A stretch of DNA of 63,759 bases, the filler included. It is 14 parts of 14 records of this genome, joined end to end, with 100 filler letters (N's around TTAATTAATTAA, not from the genome) between each part and the next. Parts side by side here need not be neighbours in the genome. Positions count along the whole stretch, not along the records: positions 13,054 to 23,667 come from SRR15195285_1030; 13 more parts are not named here. The stretch is one strand, 5' to 3'. The notes below the pieces were generated by a model. That model worked only from the letters and a program-made list of their open reading frames with translations, had not been told where the DNA came from and ran no database searches. This document shows, in pieces, positions 3,448-24,016 of the stretch (position 1 is the stretch's first letter; each line of letters opens with the position of its first letter). Made by a program: the position numbers and the translations under genes.

Positions 3448-3547
3448 NNNNNNNNNNNNNNNNNNNNNNNNNNNNNNNNNNNNNNNNNNNNTTAATTAAT
3501 TAANNNNNNNNNNNNNNNNNNNNNNNNNNNNNNNNNNNNNNNNNNNN
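3448..3547. other. Artificial contig spacer (N44-TTAATTAATTAA-N44)
   Basis: The same 100-nt six-frame-stop linker recurs at 8254, 12954, 23668, 27598, 32340, 36757, 40221, 43445, 50002, 53103, 57351 and 60636. Confidence 0.99.
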
Positions 3548-7963: not shown

Positions 7964-8439
7964 CTGTCGAGACAGGCAGCTCGTCTTGCTGATTCGTTGT
8001 GACGCTGTACGCAAGGCTTGCCGCGCCACCACCTGGTCTGACCTTAATGCATCGAAGGCCAAAAAGATACACGACGTTTGTCCCTTGGCTGTCGTCCACG
8101 TCGCTACGTCGGTCACGGGTAGCGCCGCAGCAGCAGCGCGCGCGCGCGCGCGCGCGCGGGCGGCGCGCCACTCATGCATTCAGCGCGTGCGCATGCACGC
8201 ACCTTGATTAAAGGCCATCACAATGTGATTCCCGGGTCGGGGTGCACAAATGANNNNNNNNNNNNNNNNNNNNNNNNNNNNNNNNNNNNNNNNNNNNTTA
8301 ATTAATTAANNNNNNNNNNNNNNNNNNNNNNNNNNNNNNNNNNNNNNNNNNNNAGATCCATCTCAGAATCAGTCAGGATTCCGTACTATATTTCTCAGTG
8401 AGTTTTCCGTGTTCCAGCCGGTGACGGTTGGACGTCGGG

Positions 8440-11400
8440 ATGGCGGGCGATGATGGGATGATGATGGGCGCGGGGGAGCAACCATCGCTTGATCTGGCAG
8501 CCGCGTCGGCGCAGGCGCGGCAGGCGATTGAGCAGGACGAGGTCTTCGGCGAGCTCTTGGGGCTGCTTGGGGAGCCGGCCGCTGCGGCTGTGGAGGCGTC
8601 GATCGCAGCGCAGCCTGCTTCGGTTCTCCCGATGGCGCCGAGTGCCGTTGACGACAGCTTTGGCGGAGAAGCGGCGGGGGCGACGGCAGCGCGGGTGCAA
8701 AGTGCTACGGCAGCGGCGCGCGTGAGCACGGAGCTGGATAGTGCGGTCAGTCCGACTGTGAGCGACGATGGGTTTGCGTACGAGGAAGTTGAGGAGGTGT
8801 CCGACTCGGATGGTGACGAAAGTGATACATTGCACCTGTCCGGCGCCTCAACAGCCACGCCTGCAGCCTCACTACCAGCGGCGGCCGGGAAAACTACGGC
8901 GGCGACGTCGCGGTCCTTGTTCGCACGAGACAAGCGGCGATCGGCGGATGTGCCAGCCGGTGCTGCCAGTGTCGTGCGTGGTGGCGCCGCGGAATCCACG
9001 CAGACTCTGCATGAGCGATACACCGAGCTGTCAGCGAAAATATTCCGCAAGGAGCACACGCCCGCTGAAGCAGCCGAAGCGGAGCGACTGGCAAACCTGC
9101 TGGAAGCGCAAGACTCTGCGGCAGAGCAACCTGCATCAGAGGATGACCTGCCACAGCGCGTGGCCAGGACTCCGGCCAGCATCGAAACAAAGCAGCAGCC
9201 AGCGACACCCTCAGCCTCCAGATACGAAGGCAGTGAATCTGTGAAGCGGCCAAGGGCCTCCGAACAACAAAATGGAAGCCACGGGTTGGCTGGCGGAGTT
9301 GCAAAGGTGTTAGAGAACGGTGACACGCGCTTGAACTTCAAAGCGCGGGGGCAGCTCGGCATCAAATTTGGAAAGGATGCTGGTGGGCACAGCGTCATCA
9401 CCAGCCTCGTGAAAGGTGGTCTTGCTGAGACCATGTGCAAAGCACATGGTGTGTCGATTCAGGGCAGCGAACGGTTGGTCTACGTAGGGGATGTGGAGGT
9501 ATTTTCAATGCTCTCGTCGAAGACCACCGAGGTGCTTAAAGCTGCTGCTGTCGCTCGACCACTGGTGCTTACCTTTCGTCCCACCGCGAAGATGTCTCCA
9601 CGCCGGTCCCCGCGGAACTCACAAGGGTCGCAGCGTTCTGTTCGTGCTACTCCAGGCGCTGCAAGCACCTCTAAGCCGGTGCAAATGACAGACGGTGACG
9701 ATAATAGTGCGGTGAGCGAAGCTGAGCAGGCTCGTGAAGATGAAATGAAAGCGGAGATCGCCACGCTACAAGCGCTTCTCGCTGCGAAAACGCGAGAGAA
9801 CAGTGAACTAGCAGAGAAGCACAGCACGCTGGCGGAGGATAGCAAGCAGAAAGAGCAACAGGCTGAAGTGCTTGGGCAGGCACAGCAAGTTGCATCTGTG
9901 TTGCAATCACATCTGTCCAAACTTGACATGGAGAACGAAGAGCTGCGGGCACAGCTGCAGCAAGCGGAGGAGCGAAGTAGATCCGATGCACAAGTCGCGT
10001 TGGAGGTTGGAATGCTCGTCAGGGTGATCTCAGATAGTGAGCACATCGGAAGAGAAGGCACGGTCCACATGATTGGGGGCGATACCGTGACCGTACTATT
10101 TCCTTACGAAGGTGGTGCTGGAACAGAGCCGGCTGATGCGGACGAGATCATGATGAGTGTCGTGTGTCCAGAGGGAGTGCAAGCCGGCGACCCGATCGAG
10201 ATCACGACTGCCGAAGGCGAGACCCTTGAAGTGGTCTTGCCACCTGGGGTGGCTGCTGGGGAAGAGTTCACCGTTTCGAGTCCAGCCAAACCTCGAATGC
10301 ATCAAAAGGATGGTGTACAAGTGGAATTTCACCGGGACGAACTGGAACTAGTTGGTGAATCCGATGATGTCTCCAGCACGCCGCAGAAAGGTGACTCGAA
10401 GAAGAAAAAGAAGTCCATGAAGCGCTTCGACCCTTCCGGGTGGAAGAGCAAAAAGCAGCTTAAAGAAGAGGCAATGGAAAAGAAGCGCGAGGAAGAGGAT
10501 GCCGAGATGCAGCTGCTCGCAGAGCAGTCGTTTCACAAAGGCAAAGGGAAGATCAGCGCAGGCCAAGCTGACGCGTCGGCCAACAAACTGTCCAGGTGGA
10601 CTAAGCGGAAGGCCCCAGTGGAGAGCTCAGAGCCAGAGCTCAACCCGCTACAGGGCAGCTTTGAAAAGTCACTCTCTGCCCGGGCCCCAAGGATTCCTGC
10701 TGTCTCAGATTCTGCAACGAAGGCCTCGCCACCAAAGAAAATACGCGCCATAGGTATGGACCAGCTGGAAGCACAACTTAGTGGACTGCCGGACAAGGTA
10801 CAGGCAAATGTCCTTGAGCGGCTTCGCAATGAAGAGTTGCTTGTGTTTGAGGTACGAAGGCTGAAGCGAGAGGCACGTGAACGGCAACAACAGGACAATT
10901 TAGCCCGAGCGTGGCACGAGCAGTACAAAGATTTTGTGCAGCAGCTTACGCTTCTGGCAAAAGGCCGACTAGGGAAGGTAGAAGTGGATGAGGCTTTTTT
11001 AGGTGGGGAGCTAGCGGAGGAACAAGTTGCTGCGATCGAGCTCATACGCAAAAACATGCGGGCTGCGAAGGAGCGCGCCTCGCATTACCAGCGACAACTA
11101 AGCGAAACTGTCAAGACGAAAGAGAAGAACGAGACCATCCTGCATGAGATGGTGACGGATCCCAGTTTTGCTGCAGCAGGCTACGACCCAACTGGTTCGC
11201 CCGGTGGAGGCGATGAGGCCAGCATGCGGTCTGAGATCGCTCATCTGAAGCGTACGTTGAAAAACCGGGAGAAAATGGACCGCACGGCTAGGATAGTTTC
11301 CGCAGAAGCAGCGGTCGAACTGAACGAAATGCGAGAGAAACTGGAAGTTGCAGAGCACACAGCTAGCATGGCAAGGGACCAGGTGCGCAACGCTCGCCAG

Positions 11401-12714
11401 CAGCAGAGGAATGCTTTTGAGAAAATGCAAGAGGCTCAGACCGAGCTTCATCGGACAAGTGATATCGTCCAGAAGAAATGCGATGATATTGTGGCCTTGA
11501 AGAGCAAGAACAGTAGGTTACAGGATCAGATCGAGTCCATTAGCCACGACAGCAAGTCCCAGCGTCCACGGTTCATGCGCGATAAAAAGGGCAACACAGA
11601 CGAGTTGAAGAAACTACGTGACGAGCTGCACAACTCCACCAGCCAGCGTCAAATTTTGGAGAGACGGCTGGACAGAGCTCGACTTGACATCAAACGGTTG
11701 GAGGGTGAGCTGGAAGGCGGCCAGGTCGATTTCACAGGGAGCTTTTCAAATTCAGTGCTGGAGCGCCCGGGCGCCCGGCAGTCTTTCGCGTCCCCGTCAA
11801 TGTCACGTGTCAGCACGAAGAGCGAGTCCAGGAGAGTCAGCTGGCATGCTGATGATGTGGAGGAGACACTAGAATACGAACGAGGCTCAACCCCAGTATT
11901 GACCGGCAAGCGTGCGACAACAAGAACAACTGATAGAAGTAAGCGGGGAGGGGAGGAGGACCACTACGACAGTGAAATGACTCCAGAGGAGGCGAGGAAG
12001 GCAGGGCGCAAGAAGCAAATGGCTGCCAGGTTCGCTGCTCTCTCGGCAGAGAGTGACGGTGAGAGTGCGCTGCTAGACGGTCCAGGCCATGGTCGAGAGG
12101 ACGATGGTGACCTACTGGCTGAGGCTACAAGGATACGCGACAGCGTGATGACTAGCGGCCTTAATATGATGACTATCGACCCTAAAGCGGCGCAAGCCGA
12201 AGACCCCGAGGCGCTTGAGCAATATAGGGAATATGAGAGGGATCGTCACCTGACACGCTTAGATTCGATGTGGGAGGGTTGTACAGTCCTGAAGCACTCT
12301 ACCTCGCGCGGCCGATCAAAATCTCGACATCTGCAGCTCAGTGCAGACACGACAGAACTCACTCTTGGGAAGACGACGTCAAAGCAGGCCACAACCACCG
12401 TGCCACTGGACGACGTTGTGCGAGTGCACTTTGGATCGCACGGTAGCCCTGGGTTTCGGGCGCGCGCAGTGATGTTGGGGCTTGCCGAATGGCACTGTTT
12501 CAGTCTCGAGTGCGCCAACGGAGATTTCGTCGACATAAGCACGACATGCGACGAGGATGCTGAGACGTGGTGTATCGGGCTACGCGCGTTTGTGGACAAG
12601 CAGCAGGGCGTTTCACTGGGGCATCGTGCGCACGAGGATCCGTGGGTGTATAGGGCGCAACAGTTGTTGTGGCAACGGGCAACGATGAGAGTGACAGCCA
12701 GTCTCGACGCGTGA
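8440..12714 (+). CDS. Large scaffold protein: PDZ-like domain, coiled coils, SH3/KOW-like barrel, C-terminal PH domain
   Basis: 1428-aa open frame. PDZ-like LNFKARGQLGIKFG...ITSLVKGGLAE (~9330-9580); long heptad regions; PLC/Num1-type PH-like GCTVLKHSTSRGRSKSRHLQLSAD...CFSL...DAETWCIGLR (~12270-12600). Confidence 0.75.
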   Translation: MAGDDGMMMGAGEQPSLDLAAASAQARQAIEQDEVFGELLGLLGEPAAAAVEASIAAQPASVLPMAPSAVDDSFGGEAAGATAARVQSATAAARVSTELDSAVSPTVSDDGFAYEEVEEVSDSDGDESDTLHLSGASTATPAASLPAAAGKTTAATSRSLFARDKRRSADVPAGAASVVRGGAAESTQTLHERYTELSAKIFRKEHTPAEAAEAERLANLLEAQDSAAEQPASEDDLPQRVARTPASIETKQQPATPSASRYEGSESVKRPRASEQQNGSHGLAGGVAKVLENGDTRLNFKARGQLGIKFGKDAGGHSVITSLVKGGLAETMCKAHGVSIQGSERLVYVGDVEVFSMLSSKTTEVLKAAAVARPLVLTFRPTAKMSPRRSPRNSQGSQRSVRATPGAASTSKPVQMTDGDDNSAVSEAEQAREDEMKAEIATLQALLAAKTRENSELAEKHSTLAEDSKQKEQQAEVLGQAQQVASVLQSHLSKLDMENEELRAQLQQAEERSRSDAQVALEVGMLVRVISDSEHIGREGTVHMIGGDTVTVLFPYEGGAGTEPADADEIMMSVVCPEGVQAGDPIEITTAEGETLEVVLPPGVAAGEEFTVSSPAKPRMHQKDGVQVEFHRDELELVGESDDVSSTPQKGDSKKKKKSMKRFDPSGWKSKKQLKEEAMEKKREEEDAEMQLLAEQSFHKGKGKISAGQADASANKLSRWTKRKAPVESSEPELNPLQGSFEKSLSARAPRIPAVSDSATKASPPKKIRAIGMDQLEAQLSGLPDKVQANVLERLRNEELLVFEVRRLKREARERQQQDNLARAWHEQYKDFVQQLTLLAKGRLGKVEVDEAFLGGELAEEQVAAIELIRKNMRAAKERASHYQRQLSETVKTKEKNETILHEMVTDPSFAAAGYDPTGSPGGGDEASMRSEIAHLKRTLKNREKMDRTARIVSAEAAVELNEMREKLEVAEHTASMARDQVRNARQQQRNAFEKMQEAQTELHRTSDIVQKKCDDIVALKSKNSRLQDQIESISHDSKSQRPRFMRDKKGNTDELKKLRDELHNSTSQRQILERRLDRARLDIKRLEGELEGGQVDFTGSFSNSVLERPGARQSFASPSMSRVSTKSESRRVSWHADDVEETLEYERGSTPVLTGKRATTRTTDRSKRGGEEDHYDSEMTPEEARKAGRKKQMAARFAALSAESDGESALLDGPGHGREDDGDLLAEATRIRDSVMTSGLNMMTIDPKAAQAEDPEALEQYREYERDRHLTRLDSMWEGCTVLKHSTSRGRSKSRHLQLSADTTELTLGKTTSKQATTTVPLDDVVRVHFGSHGSPGFRARAVMLGLAEWHCFSLECANGDFVDISTTCDEDAETWCIGLRAFVDKQQGVSLGHRAHEDPWVYRAQQLLWQRATMRVTASLDA

Positions 12715-12953: not shown

Positions 12954-13389
12954 NNNNNNNNNNNNNNNNNNNNNNNNNNNNNNNNNNNNNNNNNNNNTTA
13001 ATTAATTAANNNNNNNNNNNNNNNNNNNNNNNNNNNNNNNNNNNNNNNNNNNNCATAATTACTATAGTAAAAATTCGGTGCGTCCCCAAATGGGCACAAA
13101 ATCTGACGTACTCCATTTAAGTCCTTCGATGTTTGGAGGTCGAGATCGAGACCCGCAGGGGGTCTCCCTGTACTGGTGTACTAGACCAGAATCCTGGATC
13201 ACAACATAGGTAGGTGTACAACCATTAGGCGAAGTCATTGAAGGCGCAGGCACTACTACAATCATCACTGTGTTTGGCTGCGCGACTACGCTGATTTGCA
13301 CAGGGTTGACCGTAACACTGAACATTGACGCGTACTACTATGGCGATGGATGTGCTAGCCAACAACATCATTCCTTTTTGTTCACAACA

Positions 13390-16300
13390 TCACGCCCATG
13401 GGGCCAACTCAAGGTCTTCTGGCTCTGCAGTGTTGTCGCTCGATGCCTTCAGAAGTATCTCATGTGGTTGGTGCTTCGTGCCGTGTCTCCAAGTAACTTT
13501 GTCGATGGTGAAAACAGAGTAGGGAACAAACAAAAACTCCTCCTCTCCCGGGATCATGGTATTCTTCTTCACTAGAGACGCGTTGTACATTGGGCTACGG
13601 GCATCCATAATGATTAGCCACATCATGTGCGAATCACCCGTGTTCGCCCTATTGATGAAACCTTGAGCTACCTCACGGTTGGTTGTAGTCGCAAGGTACA
13701 TTGGCACCCGGTACGTCTTTCCCTCGACAAAGAATCCGCGATGTGTGTTGTCAAATCCAGTGCCACGGTACACTTGCTTGCGTGGGATCATTGACTCTCT
13801 CATCAGGTCAGTTGCCGCGTCTGGAGGCATATCGCCGACGACACAAAGTGCATTAATGCAACGGGAAATCCTCACGGCGCGTCTCACCATTTGAGCATCA
13901 TCCCGGCGGAAAATATCATTCAACGCATCATACAAACGCTTATTGAGGCCGCCTCTCATAAATGACTCTGACGTCCACATCACCATTGCCTGTTCCTTTG
14001 GCCCTCCAGGCTTTGATTGCGCTTGCTGTCTCAGCTTGTCTGCCAAGGTCTCGCCGTGCGTCTCCCGTACCCCATTCACTGCGCAATACAGTTTCAACAG
14101 CTCGCGTACCTCAGTGAGCAATGAGTCTGTGTCAGCTATGATGTCCCGCCCAGCATGTCTATACTCACGAAGGTAATTAGAAGTTGCAAGTGTAACGGGC
14201 GCTGGTCTAGCACTATCGGCAGTAGTGTACTCGACTGACTCGTTTGCCGTCCAGCTGTTGTCTTGTGACTCTGCTGGCAACTTCAAGACAAGGTATAGCT
14301 GCGCCCCTGGGCCGATATTTGGATAGTCTGCCACTGTTCCATCGCGAAGCTCTTGATGCGAGATTAAAAGACGCTGTTGATTTGGTGGCGTGCCTGACAA
14401 CGCCTGAAGTTTCGTCTTGAGCATTGAAATGGAATCGAGACTGCTCACTGTCAGCGAATACGTGTGCCCATTAAGAGTTGCGATATCCACCGTGAAACTC
14501 ATCTCTTCAGCTGCTCCAGACAACAGCGGGACGAATCCATCGTCCATGTTGGATTGCCCAATATGCTTAATGAAAATAATTGTTCCTATGCCAAACACAA
14601 CTACGATGATAACCGGAGCAACAAAGCTGCCTGGACCGAGGTGATGGTGGTCAGCGTGACTATCATGCATGTCATTTGTTGTCCTACAATCTCCTGCGCG
14701 CCCACCAATGAGAGTCGAGTCATAATAATGCACGGCGCTTGTATCAAGCGACCCGAAAACTACCACCATCAAGCTTAGTGCCCCTGCAGCGATGCTGCAC
14801 GTTGGGTCAAGCGCCTGCTTGGATGCCGCAGTTCCAAAAAATAGCAAAGCGCACACGCCGTACACAAGCAGCGTGATCGAGAATATAGATTCCTGCGTCT
14901 GATTCTGCGCCAAGCATGTTCCCCAGAACGTGGTACTGACCCAAGCCAAAGAAGAAAGAAAAATCATTAATGCTACGGCGGATTTCTTGCCTCGATACAT
15001 AAAACTGTAACCTGCGACGCCTGTTGCAAACGCCGTGGCACCTGCGGAAAGACCATAGAAGCACGCCTCTGCGGTTGTGCAACACACTGGTCGGACTGCT
15101 AATTCAGCAGGGCTACGACCGCTGGAACCACTAATCAAGGATGAATTGTGCGTGTACACAGCGGTGATGTCGATTGAGGCAAATGTCGATACAGCTACAC
15201 TTATCACGCCGATGCCGACACAGAATGCCTGATCCCAGACGCGAACGGCAGAAAAAGCAGCACCTGGCGTTGTATATCGCGAAAACCAACCAACGGACGC
15301 GACAAAGCTCAGTGTCCCGTACACGCATAACGCCACTGCAAAAGCAGCTTCCTGTCTCCTATCTAGTATCAGACACGACGCCCAAAATGACAGACATATG
15401 ACACTCAGCGGGAGCAATGATGCTGTGGCACCCAGTGTTATTGCAACAGCACCATGCTTCGAAATCGCGTGTACGGGCGAGTTCTCTCCTAGCTGCCCTT
15501 TGACTCTTAGCACAACTATACTGCCAATTGCTACGACACTGCCAGCCAGACCATCGATTCCATAGAACCACAGCTCATTGGCAGTGCAGTGTGCAGCTGC
15601 CTCATCGAAGACACTACAGGTGGCGTTGGAACCAATTACCGAGCTATCATACTTGAAGACCGTCACAAGCTCGATCAATGCAAATGTCAACATGCCTAAG
15701 CTCAGCAAGCCGATAGAAATGCAGCTGACAGCCAAGCCATTGCCCGCTCTGTATATCAACACGATGCTCCATGCAGCTTGCACCACAGCTGTGATGCAAA
15801 GCAACACTGAAAAAGCGGGTTCTTGCGAAGCGTCCAACGCAATGCAAGACGACACGAAGGCTACGCAGATGAATGATAGCCACGCCGTCATGACGGTACG
15901 TGTCATTTGCAGACCATCTGGTAGACAGAAGACTTGGCAGCCCGTCACCACAGCGAGTGTCAGCGCGATACCCCCGAAGAACCACAGCTCGTTCTCCTCG
16001 CACGCGGTGGGGCAGCTTGTGGCGTTTTGAGCCTCTTTTCCCCAGTCTGAGATCAACCCGCGATCGAGCGCAAACACAACGTAGATCTCGAGCGAGGATG
16101 AAACGACAATTAGTGCACTCATGACCATCAGTGCCACACTAACACGTTTTGCAGTCTCGTTTGGCTGCCCGAAACGAGGCAACTTAGCCACAGCTGTGAA
16201 GATGGATCCAGTTTGCTTCTGCTGCCCCTCACCTCGCTCAATCCACGTATTGCCAACCAGAGCAAGGATTCCATAGATGCAAATCGCAACCGCGAAAGAA

Positions 16301-17667
16301 GGCTCTACCGTATGGTCTTCTGTTGTGCATCTCAGCCAAAATGCCGCTAAGATGATACAAAGGGGCATTATGGTGATCGCAACGACGATCGGCACTGCGG
16401 AAATGCAGTGATCCATTTCCCTGCACCGAGCTACCGTCCACCCGAGACCAACACTCACGGCTACTGAGACCGCGATCAACGTCATTGTTTTGTAGAACCC
16501 ATACTCGAAGTCCAGTGCATCTATTGATGAGCACGCAGAGCACTCAGCAGGATGCTGGCGATATCGCCCGGGACCGCAGTCAAAGCAACTTGTGGCTCTC
16601 GTCTTGACGTTTGCACGTCCAGGAGGGCAAGTGCGGCAGTGCGTACTGTTGAATGCTGGTTGGTAGGTAAGTGCGGGACAGTCAACACATGAGCTCTGAC
16701 CGGCGTTTGATACTCGACCAGGTGTACAGCCCGTGCATGCAACAGCGGCAGAGCCGGCAACAGAGCCATCTTTGCATGCGATGCAGGTGGAGCTTTTGTG
16801 CACGGGCTGATATTTGCCTGGATCACAGTCCAGACACGCACTGCGGTCATCGTTCGACATTCTCCCACTTGTGCAAGCCTTGCACTCCGTAGCTCCTCCC
16901 CGAGCAACTGAGCCTGACTCGCAGTCAATGCAACTGCTACTCCGTTGCGTGGGCTGATACTGGCCATTTGGGCAGCTCTCGCAATATGACCCGGAATGAG
17001 AAAACTTTCCAGCAGGACAACTGACACAAGACGTGTGCCCAGAGTTCGAAGTTTGCCCCGCGGAACATGAAGTGCAGGTACAAGCACTAGAACCAGAGAT
17101 GTGGCCCGTCGAACAACCTATACACCGCGAGCTTCCTGAGTTCGAGTACATTCCCGGTTGGCACGAGTCGCACCGTGTGTTGCCGTTCTCGTGGTACCCA
17201 CAGCTGCAGTCGTTGCACGAGCACGCCCCTGACGCAGAGATTCTGCCACTGCTGCATCTGGAGCAGGAGGAACTCCTCTTGCTGGAATACTGCCCTGCAG
17301 AGCAAGATGTGCATGACGATGCGCAGGAAGACGAGTGTGTCCCACACGCACACGCCTTCTCTTTGCCATCACCAGAAAACACACCAGAGCCACAAAACGC
17401 GGCGCTGCCAGCACAGTACGCCCCCGGCGCGCAACAGTGGCAGTCGCACCCGAATACACAGGTTACATCATCTGAGCATTCGCCTGAGGGGCAGTCTCCC
17501 ATCGATCGCGGCAAACTGCCGCCATCTGCGGCAAACGCTTGCTGATCATCAAGTCTCTGGAGGTGTGTCGCATTGTACGTGACGTTCCCCCCCAGCGTGA
17601 CGCCGAGGACATGTGCCACGAGCACGGTGAAAGCGCATGGCCACCCCACGGCAAACATCCACGACAT
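13390..17667 (-). CDS. Receptor-like protein: signal peptide, Cys-rich (ephrin-receptor-like/GCC2-GCC3) repeats, ~17 TM, ubiquitin-like domain, R-S-E class ADP-ribosyltransferase domain
   Basis: Intronless ~1425-aa ORF. CxxCxxG repeats at ~17500-16520; TM region 16500-14570; Ubl FTVDIATLNGHTYSLTVSSLDSISMLKTKLQALSGTPPNQQRLL...LYLVLKL at 14500-14280; ART motifs VYRG (~13770), YLATTT (~13690) and GEEEFLFVPYSVF (~13540). Confidence 0.85.
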   Translation of the reverse strand: MSWMFAVGWPCAFTVLVAHVLGVTLGGNVTYNATHLQRLDDQQAFAADGGSLPRSMGDCPSGECSDDVTCVFGCDCHCCAPGAYCAGSAAFCGSGVFSGDGKEKACACGTHSSSCASSCTSCSAGQYSSKRSSSCSRCSSGRISASGACSCNDCSCGYHENGNTRCDSCQPGMYSNSGSSRCIGCSTGHISGSSACTCTSCSAGQTSNSGHTSCVSCPAGKFSHSGSYCESCPNGQYQPTQRSSSCIDCESGSVARGGATECKACTSGRMSNDDRSACLDCDPGKYQPVHKSSTCIACKDGSVAGSAAVACTGCTPGRVSNAGQSSCVDCPALTYQPAFNSTHCRTCPPGRANVKTRATSCFDCGPGRYRQHPAECSACSSIDALDFEYGFYKTMTLIAVSVAVSVGLGWTVARCREMDHCISAVPIVVAITIMPLCIILAAFWLRCTTEDHTVEPSFAVAICIYGILALVGNTWIERGEGQQKQTGSIFTAVAKLPRFGQPNETAKRVSVALMVMSALIVVSSSLEIYVVFALDRGLISDWGKEAQNATSCPTACEENELWFFGGIALTLAVVTGCQVFCLPDGLQMTRTVMTAWLSFICVAFVSSCIALDASQEPAFSVLLCITAVVQAAWSIVLIYRAGNGLAVSCISIGLLSLGMLTFALIELVTVFKYDSSVIGSNATCSVFDEAAAHCTANELWFYGIDGLAGSVVAIGSIVVLRVKGQLGENSPVHAISKHGAVAITLGATASLLPLSVICLSFWASCLILDRRQEAAFAVALCVYGTLSFVASVGWFSRYTTPGAAFSAVRVWDQAFCVGIGVISVAVSTFASIDITAVYTHNSSLISGSSGRSPAELAVRPVCCTTAEACFYGLSAGATAFATGVAGYSFMYRGKKSAVALMIFLSSLAWVSTTFWGTCLAQNQTQESIFSITLLVYGVCALLFFGTAASKQALDPTCSIAAGALSLMVVVFGSLDTSAVHYYDSTLIGGRAGDCRTTNDMHDSHADHHHLGPGSFVAPVIIVVVFGIGTIIFIKHIGQSNMDDGFVPLLSGAAEEMSFTVDIATLNGHTYSLTVSSLDSISMLKTKLQALSGTPPNQQRLLISHQELRDGTVADYPNIGPGAQLYLVLKLPAESQDNSWTANESVEYTTADSARPAPVTLATSNYLREYRHAGRDIIADTDSLLTEVRELLKLYCAVNGVRETHGETLADKLRQQAQSKPGGPKEQAMVMWTSESFMRGGLNKRLYDALNDIFRRDDAQMVRRAVRISRCINALCVVGDMPPDAATDLMRESMIPRKQVYRGTGFDNTHRGFFVEGKTYRVPMYLATTTNREVAQGFINRANTGDSHMMWLIIMDARSPMYNASLVKKNTMIPGEEEFLFVPYSVFTIDKVTWRHGTKHQPHEILLKASSDNTAEPEDLELAPWA

Positions 17668-18481
17668 GCGCACAAAGATATATTTAATGGATGATCGTTC
17701 TCCTGTCGCTACTGTCGGAAGCTGAGGTGCGCGTCACAGATAGTCCAGTATAGACCCGCGCCAGCAGCTGGGGTCGCGTCTCCCGCACCATCGTGCGCGG
17801 CCGGGTATCGCCGGCGCGTTCACCAGCCAAGTCAGAACTTGCATTTGATAAACTCGTATCAATAGCCGTGTTGCACTATACAAACATACGAGTTTGTGGC
17901 AAAAATGTAAAATCGCAGTATCAATTTCCCGAAGGAGCGAACGGGTGGGCTGGGCTCGATCGACTCATCCACTCAAGCGACCCCGGAATTCCCCACGGTT
18001 GGGAGCAAGGCGCTGCTGGCGGGCGGGCTGCGCTGGCTGATAGAGAGGTTGTTGCATCAAAGAGCTGTGTGCACATTGGAAAGGCTCTGCCCTCTGGCTG
18101 GCTGGCGGGTTGGCGCTGTGTGGGGAGGCTGTTTGGGGAGGGGGGGCGGGCTGTGCGTTGTGGGGGACGCGGGCTGGGGGTGTTGCCAACTGGGGTGCTG
18201 GCGTGGAGAATTGCTGGCGAGGGGCGCTGGGCTGAGCTGGTCTTGCTCGCAGATAGCGAGCAGCGCTGGTTAGCTCTGCCTCTGGCTGGGTGCGTGGAAC
18301 CGTGTGGGGCACAGAGGAGGGGCGGCTATTGCTTGGCCGTTGCGGGTCAGGATCTGGTGTTGCCAGCCGGCTGCTGTCACGCTGCACTTGCTGAGGAGGA
18401 CCCTGGGCTGAGCTGGGCTTGCTCTGGCTGGCTGGAGAGCTGTGTGGCCAAAAAAGGGAGTCTGGATAAGGGTGCGAGAGG

Positions 18482-20041
18482 ATGGATTTCCATCTGGACC
18501 GCGCGGACAAGAAGCTGAAGGACCAGCGCAAGCTGCGCGAGCAGAAGCGCAAGGCGGAGCTCGCCAAGCAGCGGCTCGTCAAGGAGAAGGCGCGCAAGCA
18601 GGCGGAGGAGATGGAGCAGCGGCTGGCCGCCGCACGTATGGAGAAGCAGCAGGAGATTGAGGACGCAGAGCGCCGGAAGATGGAGGAGGACTTGCTCACG
18701 GGAGGCATCGAGTACGGCGAGGTGTTGCGCGCGACCGCGCTGGAGGGCGAGGGCTCGAGCGACAAGGTAGTGCTGCCGCAGTCGGCGCTGGAGAAGCTTA
18801 CCAGCGCCGGAGTCTTTGACCAGGGCGGCGCGATGTTCTTCGAGTTGACAACAAGGGAGGGCGGCCGGACCCACTGCGGCGTGCGTGAGTTCGTCGCGGA
18901 AGACGGCACGATCGGCCTTCCACCGCGCGTGGCGACGTGCCTCGGCGCCGTGACAACCGCTGACGACCCGAACGCAGACACCTGGTCGTCGCGCGTCAAC
19001 GTGAAGTACGTTCGGCTCGACAAAGGCACAAAGGTGGTCCTGCAGCCGCACACAGCTGACTTTCAAAAGGATGCTGACGAGGCCACTGGCGCGGCGGCGC
19101 GGGTAGGTGCAGAGGTGGTCGAGGTGGACGAAGCTGTGGTCGAGACTCTGGTCGCGATGGGATTTGACCGGAATGGGAGCAAGCGTGCCGTCATGGCAGT
19201 AGAGAGGGATGCATCGACACGGTCTGGGAGCGCAGCCATCACGCGCGATGAAGTAGTGCCTCGCGCTGTCCAGTGGTTGATGGCTCCTGTGCGCACCACG
19301 TCCGAGCTGTCGGAGCCGCTCGCCGAAGGGCTCCAAGCGGTCTTGGAGCGCAACCTGCATAATTGCACCGCGCTGACTGTCGGCGACACAATCACCGTGC
19401 AGCACGCGGGGAAGCAGTACGAACTCTCCGTCCAGCAGTTGGAGCCAGATTCGAAAGTAAGCTTAGTGGACACGGAGCTTGAACTGGAGATCGCGCCATC
19501 GCGAGAGTACGAAGCAGCTATGGCCGCGAAGGCAGAAGAGGAAGCGAGAGCTGCGGCGGAGGAAGAAGCCCGCCGTGCAGCTGAGCGGGCTGAGCGCGCC
19601 GCGGCCGAGACGGCAGCTGCTGCTGAGAAACAGGCGCGGGTCGAGGCTGCCGAGCGGCGGCAGGCGCTCGCAGCGGAGGCACGTGCACGGTTAGAACGTG
19701 TGCCTGAGCCAGGTAGCGCTGAGACTGAGGGTGTGGTCAGCTGCGCGGTGAGACTGCCTGATGGCAGTCGCTTAACACGGCGGTTACGTGCAAGCGATTG
19801 CACAGCGCTGCTCTTCGACCTGATTGATGGTTCGGGCTGCGAAGACCCGTTGATCGCGGAGCCGTACCAATTGACTACCCGCTACCCGCGTGTTGTCGTT
19901 AGGGACACTCGCGCGCACGGGAATGCAATCTCGCTCGACGAGATGGGTTTAGGCGGAGAGAAGCAGGCGCAGTTTTTCCTGGAGGCAGCCGAGCCTCCTG
20001 CGACGCCTCCCGAGGTCGCAATGGAGGTCGCACCCTCATAA
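18482..20041 (+). CDS. UFD1-domain protein with inserted UBA domain and C-terminal UBX domain (putative p97/Cdc48 adaptor)
   Basis: UFD1 motifs SDKVVLPQSALEKL, THCGVREFVA, KGTKVVLQP, LERNLHNCTALTVGDTI and VSLVDTELELE. UBA: VETLVAMGFDRNGSKRAV...AVQWL. UBX: AVRLPDGSRLTRR...YQLTTRYPR. Confidence 0.85.
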   Translation: MDFHLDRADKKLKDQRKLREQKRKAELAKQRLVKEKARKQAEEMEQRLAAARMEKQQEIEDAERRKMEEDLLTGGIEYGEVLRATALEGEGSSDKVVLPQSALEKLTSAGVFDQGGAMFFELTTREGGRTHCGVREFVAEDGTIGLPPRVATCLGAVTTADDPNADTWSSRVNVKYVRLDKGTKVVLQPHTADFQKDADEATGAAARVGAEVVEVDEAVVETLVAMGFDRNGSKRAVMAVERDASTRSGSAAITRDEVVPRAVQWLMAPVRTTSELSEPLAEGLQAVLERNLHNCTALTVGDTITVQHAGKQYELSVQQLEPDSKVSLVDTELELEIAPSREYEAAMAAKAEEEARAAAEEEARRAAERAERAAAETAAAAEKQARVEAAERRQALAAEARARLERVPEPGSAETEGVVSCAVRLPDGSRLTRRLRASDCTALLFDLIDGSGCEDPLIAEPYQLTTRYPRVVVRDTRAHGNAISLDEMGLGGEKQAQFFLEAAEPPATPPEVAMEVAPS

Positions 20042-20448
20042 TAAAGTCACGGCAAGTATATGAGCGTACAACTCCGCAACAAGGTTCGACTTCGAGCGAG
20101 TGGTTCCTCATTCTATCTCATTAGATCTATTGGTACCACCAAGGAAGGTCTCTAACAGCCTAAGTCTAATAGAATAGCTTCGGCTCGTCGCGTCATCGCT
20201 CAATGACTCTTCCGCACCAGAAGGATCCGCGCAGCTAGAGGGGACGTAGGCTAGGCAGCTTGAACCACCCCTACTCTACACAGCAAACAATGGCACTGGA
20301 TCCGCTCACAAGGCCATGTGAGCATTTTGCCCCGGTCAACTGGATTGTCACTGAGTGCTTGAAAAAGCGCTACCATAATTTCGGTTGAATGTATGCATTG
20401 ACTGTACAGCTGTACCTGGTACCATCCATAGTCAAAATGGTACTGCTG

Positions 20449-20472
20449 GTGTGTGTGTGTGTGTGTGTGTGT
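20449..20472. repeat. (GT)n microsatellite
   Basis: About 12 GT units in the intergenic region between convergent genes. Confidence 0.9.
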
Positions 20473-20883
20473 ATGGCGGGTTTGGGCGTGTGGGAGGTTG
20501 CGTCCCGCATAGTCTTGCCCACTGCATAGCCCACCATCATTGGAGCTCCGTAGAGCCCGCGCACGTGTTTTGGGATATGATGAGGCATGAAAATCTATCT
20601 GAGTCTTGTAAGAAAATCGCGATGCGAGTTGATGTTGCGCTGAATTGGAACGGAGTCTCCTCTCTTGCTGACCCTGCATCCGCGGCAAGGTTGCTTTCAT
20701 GAGAAAATGATTGAATCTCTCCCATGGCCTGGGGAAAACCATTGGCTGCAGGCACACGACTAGGAGACAAGCGTCGCGAGGTATCCAAGTAGCAAATGAA
20801 CACGCGTGCGCTTGTACTTGCGGACGTGAGAACAAGTTACTGCTTGACTACAATCATGCACGTCCGCGTTAGCGTATCGTATG

Positions 20884-23584
20884 TCAATGGACATCCCGTA
20901 CGATCTTGCGTGCGATAGCTTCCCACGCCTTCCGCTCGCGTGGCGAACACCCTGCCCCATTGATCCACCCAGCCTCGCCGCCGCCACTACACGCATAAAA
21001 ATAAGGCGCCAGCCCGATCAGTTGCGGTTCGGACGAAGCCCATTCCATTGTCGCTGCTGCCCAGCGCGCTATACCTCTTGCGCAATCGATGTCGCCACAC
21101 CAAGCCTTGGCTGAACAATTGAACTTCTTGTCGGTGCAGTTTGCGTGAGTGGTAGTGTTACTGACTGTGTAGCCCGGCGGGATATATAGAGCGCGTTGCG
21201 CCGCAGACATCCGTGGGAAGACCTGTGAACGGTACAGGGCTGCAACTGTGTCCACATCCTTGGCGTGATTTGGGTACCTATCACATACGAACGTATGTGC
21301 ACGCACACGTGAACACGACGTCGATAGTATAGTACGCTGTGATGACAAACACACGCGAGTTTCCCGCAAAAACAAAGAAATGTGAGTTCTTACATGTCGA
21401 TCGAAATCCAGTCGAGCGACGGTGGCACCATTTGAAGCTGGTAGTGCTCAGGGTTTGAAAACACAGTCCACGCCTCGTTGTACCACACAATAGACTGTGG
21501 CAACGCTCGTTTAATCCTGGCTGCAACCATCTCGATCGTTCCCGCCGATACCCCACCAAAGATAAGCTCGTCACCCAGCCAAAACCCGGAAACTGTGCCG
21601 TTTTTCAGAAATGGGGCCCATCTTGCAGAGGCCGCGTGCCAGGAAGCATTCCAGCCAGGCTTGAGCACCACGGGCTTCGATTTCGTCTCGAAGAACAGGT
21701 GCTTTAAGTTGACCAGTACGGTCGCGCCGAGGGAATGAGCTACGATTATGCTCTCTGGATCATGAAGCTCGAACGCGAGATTGAATTGCTCTGCATTTGC
21801 CTTCATGTCTGCAGTATCTGTCAATGAATACCATCCAAAATACCGCAAGTAGTTTCGGCTGCTGGTGTTGCTGGTGTTGCTGGTGTTGCTGCCGCCGCCG
21901 CCGCCGCCGCCGCCACTGATACTGCGCACCGTTGACCGCACCACCGTTGCTTGAACAATCAAAATTGCGTCTTGGTCATCTGTAGCGGGCACATGTAGAG
22001 AGACTGCTGCTCCTGCTGCTCGCACCGTTATTGGGTTGCCAACAGCGCTGCCATTGGTGGGTGAGAGCCACGTGACTGTGTAGCTGCTGCCTCTGGGAAG
22101 CGAAACCATTGCGTTGGAAATAGCTGTAGAGTTTGCAAGATAACACACGGCCACAGTGGGGAGTGCACTAAGACACGGCTGGGTGGTACCAGTATCGGCT
22201 GCCAACATCTGTGGCTGCGGTGTCGCGGAGCTTAGGGAGGCAATCAGCCCATAACGCCTCCAGGACGCGTCGCATTGTTGCAACAAGTCGAAACGGCGCT
22301 GCACTGTCCGCTGCATCTTCGATGTGGAAGTGACCACCAGAGGTGACAATCGTCCAGCACATCCGTCGTAGCTCCAGCGAATCGACGACACCGTTGCCCA
22401 TTTCATCCACGTTCACTGGGCGTTTGTATTGCAAGTGCGCACCGATGTAAGTCGATGCCGCTGCCACCTCCGAGAACCCGGTCTTCCCGAGGTGCTTATT
22501 CACCAGGTCTACTGCGGACGAGGTGTAGAACGACTCCTCATCACCAGTAATGGAAGAATAGGTCACAAGCCGGTCTAACCGAAGTTCTTTTAGCAAGTTT
22601 TTGACGAACATACCCCAGTATGTGCCAAAGGAACTGTTTGCCGGCGACTGCATGTGCTCATTTTCCACCTCGTACACCACGTTATATCGCGCGGTTTCTC
22701 TCACAAGCCGTTCGGCGTAGCGAGCCTGGTAGTATCGCAAACGCGGCGATGCGGCCCAGTGATAAAACGCAGGGACCCCAGAACCAGCAGACCCGGGGGG
22801 CATCTCGAGACTGTTGATGTTGCAATCTCCGCACCATGGATTATGCGAGTACGCGGTGCCATCAGTAAGTCCACATCGGTCGAAGAGCATGACTTCAGAC
22901 GTTATATTCAGCGCGCTTGCGGTGGCGATGGAATCTGTCAGCCGGGTCCAGTACGTTTCGTTCCACACAGACAAGTTCAGCTTGCCGCCCTCGCCCGCCC
23001 GTTGCCACGGCCACATCGCATCTGGGTCCCACGGGAGGAAATGCCACACTCGCGCGTAGCTGACGCCGTTCTGGTGCAACTGCTGTATCTGGGCGGTGTA
23101 GTTACCGAGGTTCTTGCCAGTGGCAGAGTCCACGCCAGTTGTCGTGGGCACGATGGCGCCGTGCGACGCCAGAAGCACTGCGCGACGAGTGTTCGCGTCC
23201 TGGAAGTAGTGAGCGTTGCTCGGATGGATCCGAAGGAAGGAGTGGACCTCGGCTGCGGCACTACCTGCTCCGTTCAATAGCGGTACCACAAACAGCTGCT
23301 GAGTTCTGCATTCTAGAATTGCTGCTGCTACTAGGCAAGACAGATCAAGTTTGGCTCACTGGGTGTTTGCACTACAGTAATCGATGTGACATGGAGGTAG
23401 TACCAGTTGGTGTCACGGCAGAATAAGACGCCGGGGCAGCAGCACTGCCGGTGCTGGGTGAGGCGGGTGCTGCCCTCCTCAGTGTACCTCCAGAAAAACT
23501 TGGTCGTACATATACGGCAGCGCAGAGCAGCAGCAGTAGCAGCATTAACAGCCGCTGGCAGATCGCGAGCAGGGCGCGGGTCAT
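20884..23584 (-). CDS. Secreted glycoside-hydrolase-like protein with two TIM-barrel-like modules (clan GH-A/GH5-DUF4038-like, a beta-sandwich, then a second barrel)
   Basis: Signal-like MTRALLAICQRLLMLLLLLLCAAV. LRIHPSNAHYFQD, YEVENEH (acid/base) and PVNVDEMG (nucleophile); YTVTWLSPTNG sandwich; second module GFWLGDEL, WYNEA, DWISIDM|YPNH (intron ~21395-21280). The junctions near 23300-23400 and 22200-22270 are uncertain. Confidence 0.65.
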
Positions 23585-24016
23585 CGCCAGCCCTCCCGGC
23601 GTGCGATGCCCGATGCGTCCGTCGCCGGGCCTCACTGGGGGGTCAGACTGTGGGCCACTGGAAGGGTNNNNNNNNNNNNNNNNNNNNNNNNNNNNNNNNN
23701 NNNNNNNNNNNTTAATTAATTAANNNNNNNNNNNNNNNNNNNNNNNNNNNNNNNNNNNNNNNNNNNNAGCCACGAGAGTACCTACGCTGATACATCTGTA
23801 GTCAACATGAGTCTCTGTATATCGGTACCAATCTGGGCACTGAAAACTTAAGGATTCCCATTTGGGTACTTACGATATATCGAATTCGAATATATATATA
23901 CGCCGCGCTACTACTACTACTACTACCCGCTAGACCCGGTATATGTAGTGCAATCAGCGACAGCAGGCGTGGCCCACCTGCTACATGTAGAAGAGGCGGC
24001 CGGGATCTGCCAACGG

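Follow-up and report, generated by a model that had tools for sequence, protein, structure and literature searches.

A repeated four-helix membrane unit in a receptor-like marine protist protein with an ADP-ribosyltransferase-like domain

The gene and its four membrane units

The window, by which we mean the whole 63,759-nucleotide stretch of DNA that was analyzed (filler included), contains on its minus strand a single uninterrupted open reading frame (13390-17673) in marine protist DNA from an uncultured source, and it encodes a protein of 1427 aa. The gene product is receptor-like by its domain order, which runs from a signal peptide through ephrin-receptor-like Cys repeats, four units of four transmembrane (TM) helices each and a 17th TM helix to a ubiquitin-like domain and an ADP-ribosyltransferase (ART)-like domain. 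A full-length relative, P0003, has the identical architecture. Contigs from RNA libraries cover the gene without joints at an identity of at least 95% (mostly at least 99%), a weak observation given that RNA libraries can contain DNA. The features are as follows.

13390..17667, minus strand: whole gene, ATG at 17667, stop at 13390-13392; 1425 aa counted from the ATG
17590..17667, minus strand: predicted signal peptide, aa 3-28 (from the translation and a hydrophobic peak spanning aa 7-31)
16525..17511, minus strand: Cys-rich ectodomain with ephrin-receptor-like repeats, aa 55-383 (Pfam PF07699)
16018..16524, minus strand: 4-TM unit 1, aa 384-552, 169 aa (hydropathy, alignment, HMM)
15598..16017, minus strand: 4-TM unit 2, aa 553-692, 140 aa (hydropathy, alignment, HMM, AF2)
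15094..15597, minus strand: 4-TM unit 3, aa 693-860, 168 aa (hydropathy, alignment, HMM)
14674..15093, minus strand: 4-TM unit 4, aa 861-1000, 140 aa (hydropathy, alignment, HMM, AF2)
14569..14673, minus strand: His/Asp-rich extracellular linker and 17th TM helix (helix at aa 1017-1035, nt 14569-14625)
14278..14484, minus strand: ubiquitin-like domain, aa 1064-1132 (Pfam PF00240, PDB ubiquitin matches)
13393..14136, minus strand: C-terminal ART-like domain, aa 1180-1427 (weak PF01129, Atlas, candidate motifs)

The ectodomain matches Ephrin_rec_like (PF07699) above its cut-off in four stretches (E 3.8e-9, 36.6 bits vs 23.1), and the region preceding the TM units (aa 32-396) holds 49 Cys. Beyond helix 17, which is the sole link between the membrane units and the cytosolic domains, the PF00240 match is likewise above cut-off (E 1.7e-10, 41 bits vs 25.4), and the ubiquitin-like domain has no C-terminal Gly-Gly. 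The ART-like domain scores under the PF01129 cut-off of 22.3 bits (E 0.051, 13.3 bits), as weakly as its counterpart in P0003 (E 0.042), and found no match among PDB sequences; in an Atlas feature search it scored 0.97, with ART/ADPrib_exo_Tox clusters making up 23 of the 30 hits. The R-S-E type of ART is defined by an Arg, a Ser-x-Ser-type element and a Glu-x-Glu, in that order, and candidates for all three occur in order here (R1303, T-T-T at 1329-1331 and E-E-E at 1377-1379). These are identical in P0003, with which the domain shares 200 of 248 aligned positions.

A preliminary description had placed a recurring unit of about 130-170 aa in the membrane region, with starts near 16510, 16003, 15588 and 15082. 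Four homologous units of 140-169 aa indeed lie there, the boundaries agreeing within about 15 nt, and each contains four hydrophobic helices in a hydropathy scan, helix 1 of unit 4 being the weaker. Of the three motifs said to be shared, all are present, exact in units 2 and 3 and only partial in units 1 and 4. Aligned with MAFFT, the four units have 10 invariant columns and identities of 23-27%.

The fourfold repeat, whose significance the preliminary description had wished to see tested, is statistically significant. Pairwise Smith-Waterman scores ran from 58 to 153, where shuffled sequences averaged 30-35 (300 shuffles per unit pair; z 4.6-17.7), while a reversed-partner control that preserves composition and segment layout gave 29-55; the weakest pair, units 1 and 2, scored 58, barely above the shuffle maximum of 55. 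In a leave-one-out test, HMMs built from three units found the fourth at E values from 9e-16 to 5e-28 (Z=1). The four-unit HMM found no further copies across the window, and from P0003 it recovered exactly four. Unit 1 is the most divergent and has a long cytosolic loop between its helices 3 and 4, unit 2 is the most compact, and the family consensus is nearest to unit 3 (leave-one-out E 5e-28).

Corresponding units of the two full-length proteins score 362-470 against each other and non-corresponding units 54-193, and thus the quadruplication is older than the split between them, and none of the four units has been lost since. The two proteins differ most in their TM units (52-64% identity), less in the ectodomain (68%) and least in the ART region (81%).

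Relatives of the unit and the domains beside it

A profile of the four units, containing the TM units only, was searched against 1.84 billion (1.84e9) representative proteins. There were 12 matches at E<=1e-3, of which 11 were judged credible because the F-W-x-x-C...Q-E motif is present in them. Many family members are fragments. Units number 1 (P0008), 2 (P0004), 3 (P0006) or 4 per protein; the third one in P0006, at 5.7 bits, falls short of the 6.9 that reversed sequences reach, and was recognized by eye from its motifs. The two units of P0004 are separated by about 250 aa of Cys-rich ectodomain. A profile search for other architectures was a check put forward in the preliminary description. 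Given that copy number ranges from one to four across relatives, fourfold symmetry is not a family trait, and fourfold pseudo-symmetry finds no support as an organizing principle.

The unit itself proved as unrecognized as had been claimed. With HMMER, the four units and the whole TM region gave a best E of 0.015 against Pfam, all matches being far under cut-off, and when each of 14 family members was scanned separately at E<=10, none of the TM families was matched by more than one of them. NCBIfam returned no match to the unit, and the best E of the unit profile against PDB sequences was 0.61. Judged from these searches, the 4-TM unit belongs to a small family, found in marine eukaryotes and absent from the catalogues searched.

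Of the family proteins, 7 continue past their last helix into a tail, and 5 of these carry an ART or PARP domain; the count covers few proteins, from lineages possibly rich in PARP/ART genes regardless. The outputs are ART-like in P0001 and P0003, PARP in P0005, and WWE plus PARP in P0008 and P0016, the PARP domains of these relatives being of the PF00644 type; the tails of P0006 and P0007 contain no recognized domain. Exactly one helix follows the last unit in all five ART/PARP-bearing proteins, and a single extra helix is seen in P0005, P0006, P0007, P0008 and P0016. By predicted architecture, then, the unit is repeatedly joined to ART or PARP domains inside the cell. Given that the profile held only the TM part, and that two ART clades, R-S-E ART and PARP with WWE, nevertheless adjoin it, this argues for a functional pairing and not for an accident of one gene.

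Topology, conservation and structure models

The signal peptide and the Cys-rich domain that precede the units, together with the charges, Cys and sequons of the loops, predict that both ends of each unit lie outside (N-out/C-out). Loops assigned to the outside contain 10 K+R and 28 D+E in 188 residues, 10 Cys and 4 N-glycosylation sequons, while those assigned to the inside contain 18 K+R and 9 D+E in 128 residues and 2 Cys; this charge pattern agrees with the positive-inside rule.

Nearly all of the conservation lies in the extracellular half. In an alignment of 18 units, from which the P0003 rows had been dropped, the mean BLOSUM sum-of-pairs was 1.65 over 72 columns of the outer side and -0.10 over 50 columns of the inner side (Mann-Whitney p=3.6e-10), and the inner helix halves and cytosolic loops are unconserved. 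The membrane cores are apolar, with 1 charged residue and 2 N/Q in 187 positions (the middle 11 of each of the 17 helices), and small residues, typical of tight packing, are abundant in the TM helices. Cys is conserved at three sites: ahead of helix 1, within the loop that joins helices 2 and 3, and in the outer portion of helix 3, where unit 4 has Leu. The loop Cys is invariant in 14-row alignments, and the Cys motif of the family is a vicinal C-C plus single Cys. One polar position in TM4 varies among D, E, Q and H across units, and it may be structural instead of ligand-binding.

An AlphaFold model had been suggested as a way to look for a central cavity, and the outcome was divided. Unit 2, the one chosen for single-unit folding, gave a closed four-helix bundle when modeled alone with AF2 from a 14-row alignment (pLDDT 84.7, or 85 when rounded; pTM 0.72). 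The model of the whole TM region reached only pLDDT 35.7 and, apart from again containing 17 long helices, was unusable. On the single-unit model, the unit is predicted to fold on its own as a self-contained cassette.

Foldseek with this model returned no match at E<=0.001 (best E 2.0). A wide search with VIA gave a top Z of 9.8, soluble and membrane four-helix bundles being mixed and scoring alike, and by VIA's stated background helical bundles reach a Z of about 13 through common arrangement alone. As modeled, then, the unit is a generic up-down four-helix bundle, for which these searches gave no specific structural relative.

Interpretation and comparison with known systems

The explanation we favor, to which we give an even chance, treats the units as independent cassettes whose working surface faces outward, forming an array and not a pore and serving receptor ADP-ribosyltransferases. 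Each would be a self-contained up-down four-helix membrane bundle with both ends extracellular, and one to four of them would lie in series between a Cys-rich domain outside the cell and an additional TM helix leading to a cytosolic output domain, most often an ADP-ribosyltransferase. From the conserved positions, a disulfide between the Cys that precedes helix 1 and the invariant one following F-W at the end of helix 2 may staple the outer mouth of the bundle, and the putative working surface would be a ring of conserved polar and acidic residues around that mouth: the E before helix 1, the D-x-T-Q-E at the helix 2-3 turn, the D/E/Q/H that lies one or two turns inside helix 4, and the D after helix 4. 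A ligand-binding role at this face is plausible; the surface could bind a cation or small polar ligand, or dock the ectodomain. Occupancy would alter the packing of the cassettes among themselves and with helix 17, and since the ubiquitin-like and ART domains are joined to the cassettes through helix 17 alone, this packing would control ADP-ribosylation. The four tandem cassettes would be a multivalent array with no pore.

A narrower proposal, which we regard as tentative and rather doubtful, is that the cassette is a dedicated membrane sensor of an undescribed signaling class, "receptor ADP-ribosyltransferases", that switches a cytosolic ART or PARP on or off; the acidic, disulfide-stapled mouth would sense a cation, a small ligand or movement of the ectodomain, and the single following helix would relay it. 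On this proposal, ligand-gated ADP-ribosylation would do for marine protists what receptor kinases do for animals. A bolder variant is that the protein may be a channel-enzyme, with the four cassettes closed around a pore.

The preliminary description had favored a pore, transporter or ligand-binding bundle over a simple anchor. As a pseudo-tetrameric pore or transporter, the four units would be arranged around a central axis as a conduit for ions or a solute, with single- and double-unit relatives perhaps oligomerizing to reach four, by analogy with voltage-gated-type channels, which occur with one, two or four domains. The window protein and its orthologue P0003 do have four homologous units, family copy numbers of 1, 2 and 4 are compatible with a constant total of four, the outer mouth is ringed by acidic residues, and the top VIA rows (Z 7.1-9.8) include large-pore subunits (LRRC8A, pannexins, innexin, connexins) and a designed calcium channel; those scores, however, fall under the helical-bundle background, and soluble bundles score equally. 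Three units in P0006, if its weak third is accepted, and the wide spacing of the P0004 units also speak against a constant four around one axis, and the lone unit is predicted to be a closed bundle. Apolar helix cores and conservation confined to the outer half are not as expected of a membrane-spanning conduction path, and we consider a pore improbable; the evidence lends that part of the earlier idea no support.

That the units are more than a simple anchor fared better, given a conserved family, unit-by-unit orthology to P0003 and sharply localized conservation. As a passive anchor or spacer, or a device for sorting to a membrane domain in the manner of tetraspan scaffolds, the units would bind no ligand and send no signal, and conservation of their outer-face residues would reflect nothing beyond folding and disulfide formation. 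The generic bundle fold, the small-residue-rich helices, the variable copy number and the fact that the TM units evolve fastest between orthologues would all fit. Yet one helix suffices for an anchor, while both orthologues have retained 16 more, each unit with its counterpart; distant members whose ecto- and endodomains differ still share a specific set of motifs, and one face holds most of the conservation. We therefore judge a passive role unlikely. Were the units only a scaffold, they would still be a clean, repeatable 4-TM building block of unusual out/out orientation.

Least credible, and in our estimate very improbable, is a membrane thiol-disulfide oxidoreductase like VKOR or DsbB, in which the extracellular Cys would shuttle electrons instead of being structural. 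The three conserved Cys sites invite the idea, and human VKOR provides the best natural Foldseek rows (E 2.4-3.3, probability 0.18-0.51) and DsbB a VIA Z of 8.2, but all of these fold matches are in the noise range. VKOR and DsbB have a conserved C-x-x-C redox motif, and no conserved C-x-x-C column was found at any position in alignments of 4, 10 and 22 units, which have the vicinal C-C plus single Cys instead; the Leu in helix 3 of unit 4 and a topology opposite to that of VKOR and DsbB also count against membership, which we rejected.

Returning to the cassette array, there is a likeness in shape to the tetraspans, which are also four-helix up-down membrane bundles with conserved extracellular Cys. 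We compared sarcospan/MS4A-CD20, MARVEL/synaptogyrin, claudin/PMP22 and connexin/pannexin/LRRC8 subunits. VIA gave Z 9.8 for sarcospan, 9.3 for LRRC8A, 9.0 for pannexin-2, 8.0 for Fc-epsilon-RI beta, 7.7 for synaptogyrin and 7.1-7.4 for connexins, all within the range of unrelated helical bundles, and no sequence relationship was detected. Both termini are cytosolic (N-in/C-in) in claudin/PMP22-type and the other named tetraspan families, whereas the signal peptide, ectodomain, charge, Cys and sequon counts predict that the unit ends here lie outside, and on this prediction we rejected membership among them. Tetraspans are, moreover, whole proteins, while here the bundle is a repeatable cassette within a larger receptor.

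Piezo blades are built of tandem homologous four-helix bundles that lie side by side in the membrane without surrounding the pore, and they resemble the present protein in having tandem 4-TM bundles in one chain (a Piezo2 segment has a VIA Z of 7.6, at noise level). They differ in showing no sequence similarity, in opposite orientation, and in an output that is a channel gate instead of an enzyme; we know of no conserved Cys/acidic outer-face motif in Piezo units. Membrane adenylyl and guanylyl cyclases are receptor-enzymes with multi-pass membrane parts that likewise combine, in one chain, sensing by an extracellular or membrane region with a cytosolic catalytic output, and the mycobacterial adenylyl cyclase Rv1625c gave a weak Foldseek match (E 5.6). 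Here the output is instead a predicted ADP-ribosyltransferase (a candidate R-S-E ART, or PARP in relatives) accompanied by ubiquitin-like or WWE domains, and the membrane part is unrelated in sequence.

ADP-ribosylation is familiar as a toxin mechanism, as a DNA-damage and stress signal and as an extracellular modification. The C-terminal domain of the window protein resembles the PF01129 ARTs (below the Pfam cut-off), but ecto-ARTs of that family sit outside the cell on a GPI anchor, and PARP16 is attached to the membrane by one tail anchor, whereas the catalytic domain here is predicted to be cytosolic, behind 17 helices and a large ectodomain. To our knowledge no transmembrane receptor with a cytosolic ADP-ribosyltransferase output is known, and a literature search for one found none. 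If our reading is correct, the cassette is a new domain family worth a database entry and marks a signaling route in abundant marine protists.

Layout of the gene and its protein

The window is cut into 14 pieces by 13 spacers (each 44 N, TTAATTAATTAA and a further 44 N), so that open reading frames (ORFs) flanking a spacer are not true neighbours. The gene is a single uninterrupted ORF, and a hydropathy scan of its product revealed a signal-peptide-like peak, 16 hydrophobic helices (aa 397-976) and one more (aa 1017-1035), here called helix 17.

Features of the window and of the protein
3448-3547, 8254-8353, 12954-13053, 23668-23767 and nine more: spacers
13054-23667: piece carrying the gene
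13390-17673, minus strand: the gene, 1427 aa, first ATG at 17667
Minus strand: four ephrin-receptor-like Cys repeats (Pfam E 3.8e-9)
aa 384-552, minus strand: unit 1
aa 553-692, minus strand: unit 2
aa 693-860, minus strand: unit 3
aa 861-1000, minus strand: unit 4
aa 1064-1132, minus strand: ubiquitin domain (Pfam E 1.7e-10)
aa 1290-1395, minus strand: NAD:arginine ADP-ribosyltransferase (ART), sub-threshold in Pfam (E 0.051; 13.3 bits, the cut-off being 22.3)

Twelve studies supplied the 13 metagenome DNA runs, marine or seawater, in which the stretch was present; it also occurred as a small share in 6 RNA-library runs. Contigs of four RNA libraries, including one oligo-dT library, map to the gene in 15 records, at identities of at least 99% in 10 of the 15 and of 95-99% in the other 5; parts of the gene lacking such a contig are uninformative. 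These contigs contain no joints, which is weak evidence of intron-free transcription because such libraries can contain DNA.

The domains of the remaining ORFs scanned in the window (UFD1/UBA/UBX, CAP-Gly, WD40, calpain and PDZ) are of a eukaryotic type. One on the gene's own piece (18482-20041, plus strand, 519 aa) encodes UFD1 N1 and N2 subdomains, a UBA-like domain and UBX; it sits in a local GC peak (0.643 over 18001-20000), and several long ORFs overlap it in other frames. Another, on an adjoining piece (8428-12714, plus strand, 1428 aa), had no Pfam match at E<=0.001 and by eye is rich in charged, coiled-coil-like sequence.

A tandem four-helix cassette

The preliminary description had proposed that a module of four transmembrane helices recurs four times, and its unit starts agree with ours to about 15 nt. 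When aligned, the units share 23-27% identity and ten invariant columns; pairwise Smith-Waterman scores ranged from 58 to 153, 300 shuffles per pair giving means of 30-35 (z 4.6-17.7), and units scored against reversed partners gave 29-55. Units 1 and 2 form the weakest pair (58, with shuffles reaching 55 at most), and unit 3 connects both. Hidden Markov models (HMMs) built from any three units recovered the fourth with E values of 9e-16 to 5e-28, and the repeat is significant. Units 2 and 3 contain all three motifs proposed for the module in full, units 1 and 4 only in part. No further copies were found when the window was searched with the unit HMM.

At the sensitivity of HMMER the module is also, as had been claimed, unrecognised: neither the units, the transmembrane region nor any family member had a Pfam match above cut-off, weak matches to Pfam families did not repeat across the 14 members scanned, NCBIfam gave no match for the unit, and the unit profile reached only E 0.61 among PDB sequences. 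The Atlas search of protein clusters by feature returned only unnamed fungal clusters for unit 3, with a best score of 0.83 that serves only as a lead. An AF2 model of unit 2 from a 14-row alignment was entirely helical (pLDDT 84.7, pTM 0.72); that of the whole 657-aa transmembrane region, from two rows, can be used for its helix count alone (pLDDT 35.7, pTM 0.26).

Given that helical bundles get to a Z of about 13 in VIA-align through common arrangement alone, the best Z of 9.8 for the unit model among 48,161 chains, together with a best Foldseek E of 2.0 against the PDB (none at E<=0.001), indicates a generic four-helix bundle and does not imply membership of a family. The top VIA-align rows were mixed, comprising membrane proteins (a designed calcium channel, sarcospan, LRRC8A, pannexins, DsbB, Fc-epsilon-RI beta, synaptogyrin, a Piezo2 segment and connexins) and soluble four-helix bundles. 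These data establish the repeat as a real, uncatalogued, self-folding four-helix cassette.

Relatives, copy number and output domains

Word-indexed searches, which are insensitive, returned one match among 8000 candidates for the transmembrane region, and one ('longer' setting) or four ('near' setting) for a 10-row profile. The single match to the region was P0003, a full-length orthologue of 1585 aa that is 54% identical and shares the architecture of the window's protein, with a second ubiquitin-like domain. The unit HMM found exactly four units in it. Corresponding units of the two proteins score 362-470 and non-corresponding ones 54-193, so the quadruplication arose before the two proteins diverged, and each of the four copies has been retained. 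The units are 52-64% identical, the ectodomains 68% (188/276) and the ART regions 81% (200/248).

An exhaustive search of 1.84 billion representatives with the four-unit profile yielded 12 proteins at E<=1e-3; three of these passed E<=1e-10, and none reached E<=1e-30. One of the 12, P0015 (E 4.8e-4), was discarded because its match, to a low-complexity tandem repeat devoid of the family motif, was judged spurious. In the other 11, C-C-[ST]-G-x-E-P precedes helix 1, F-W-x-x-C-x-x-x-D-x-T-Q-E-x-x-F lies at the turn between helices 2 and 3, and F-A-S-V-[QEH]-I comes towards the end of helix 4. P0016, P0017 and P0018 came from two additional profile searches. Two pattern scans of metagenomes for relatives gave 152 and 33 pattern matches, none of which was confirmed. 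The family is small, and most members are fragments.

The proposed search for other architectures with a unit HMM did uncover relatives with differing numbers of units: one in P0008, two in P0004, three in P0006 (the third at only 5.7 bits, below the 6.9 bits attained by reversed sequences) and four in the window's protein and P0003. Copy number in the family is therefore not confined to four. In P0004 a Cys-rich ectodomain of about 250 aa separates the two units; ahead of the first, in the predicted extracellular part, lies a MIB_HERC2 domain (aa 112-161, E 6.2e-12), a domain otherwise known from cytosolic E3 ligases.

The search profile covered the membrane units only, and seven of the proteins continue beyond the last helix, the other members being fragments that are uninformative on the output domain. 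Exactly one helix follows the last unit in all seven. The tail holds an ART-like domain in two (the window's protein and P0003), PARP in P0005 (E 1.8e-16), WWE plus PARP in P0008 and P0016 (the latter by precomputed annotation), and no recognised domain in P0006 and P0007. The tail of P0006, about 500 aa after a helix near aa 856-925, contains two internally similar segments and matched nothing in Pfam or among PDB sequences; an output domain not yet recognised may lie here.

Orientation and possible function

Unit 1 should begin outside, because a signal peptide and a Cys-rich domain precede it; each unit is then predicted to start and end outside, and helix 17 to lead the chain into the cytosol. 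The loop charges fit the positive-inside rule.

Composition of the loops by assigned side
Outside: K+R 10/188; D+E 28/188; 10 Cys; 4 N-glycosylation sequons
Inside: K+R 18/128; D+E 9/128; 2 Cys; 1 N-glycosylation sequon

We divided the columns of a 22-unit alignment by side, outer or inner, leaving out P0003 so that nothing was counted twice (18 rows remained). Conservation averaged 1.65 over the 72 outer columns versus -0.10 over the 50 inner ones (Mann-Whitney p=3.6e-10). Gly, Ala, Ser and Cys are abundant in the helices, and the central 11 residues of all 17 include one charged residue and two Asn/Gln among 187 positions. At the level of prediction, the out/out orientation of the cassette and the outward direction of its conserved surface are established.

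We put at about even the chances that the cassettes, each with a disulfide-stapled outer mouth, bind a ligand or dock the ectodomain and signal via helix 17. The disulfide would join the Cys before helix 1 to the invariant loop Cys, the polar and acidic mouth might bind a cation or small ligand or dock the ectodomain, and the signal would pass from the cassettes through helix 17 to the ubiquitin-like and ART domains in the cytosol. A full-text literature search yielded no relevant paper, as judged from the openings of abstracts.

The fourfold repeat had earlier suggested a pore, a transporter or a ligand-binding bundle. The pore reading is weakened by the varying copy number, the apolar helix cores and the unconserved inner halves of the helices, and we consider it improbable. 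A passive scaffold is a somewhat better candidate but still unlikely, since conservation is one-sided and the maintenance of 16 helices in orthologues is hard to reconcile with such a role. DsbB is among the structural matches, but those rows are at noise level and a conserved C-x-x-C is absent, which makes a VKOR/DsbB-like redox role the least credible of these alternatives and very improbable indeed.

Turning to the cytosolic output, although the ART region did not match a solved ART among PDB sequences and is sub-threshold in Pfam, its assignment is strengthened by an Atlas score of 0.97 (23 of 30 matches being ART/ADPrib_exo_Tox clusters) and by R (aa 1303), T-T-T (1329-1331) and E-E-E (1377-1379), which we take to be the ART motif set and which occur in this order here and identically in P0003. 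Directly upstream of this arginine-type ART-like domain, the ubiquitin-like domain keeps Q-Q-R-L (14365-14379, minus strand; aa 1099-1103), which aligns with the Arg42 region of ubiquitin. Arg42 is the residue of ubiquitin that bacterial SidE enzymes ADP-ribosylate, and by analogy the fused ubiquitin-like domain might be modified in cis by the adjoining ART-like domain, an idea that is open to experiment.
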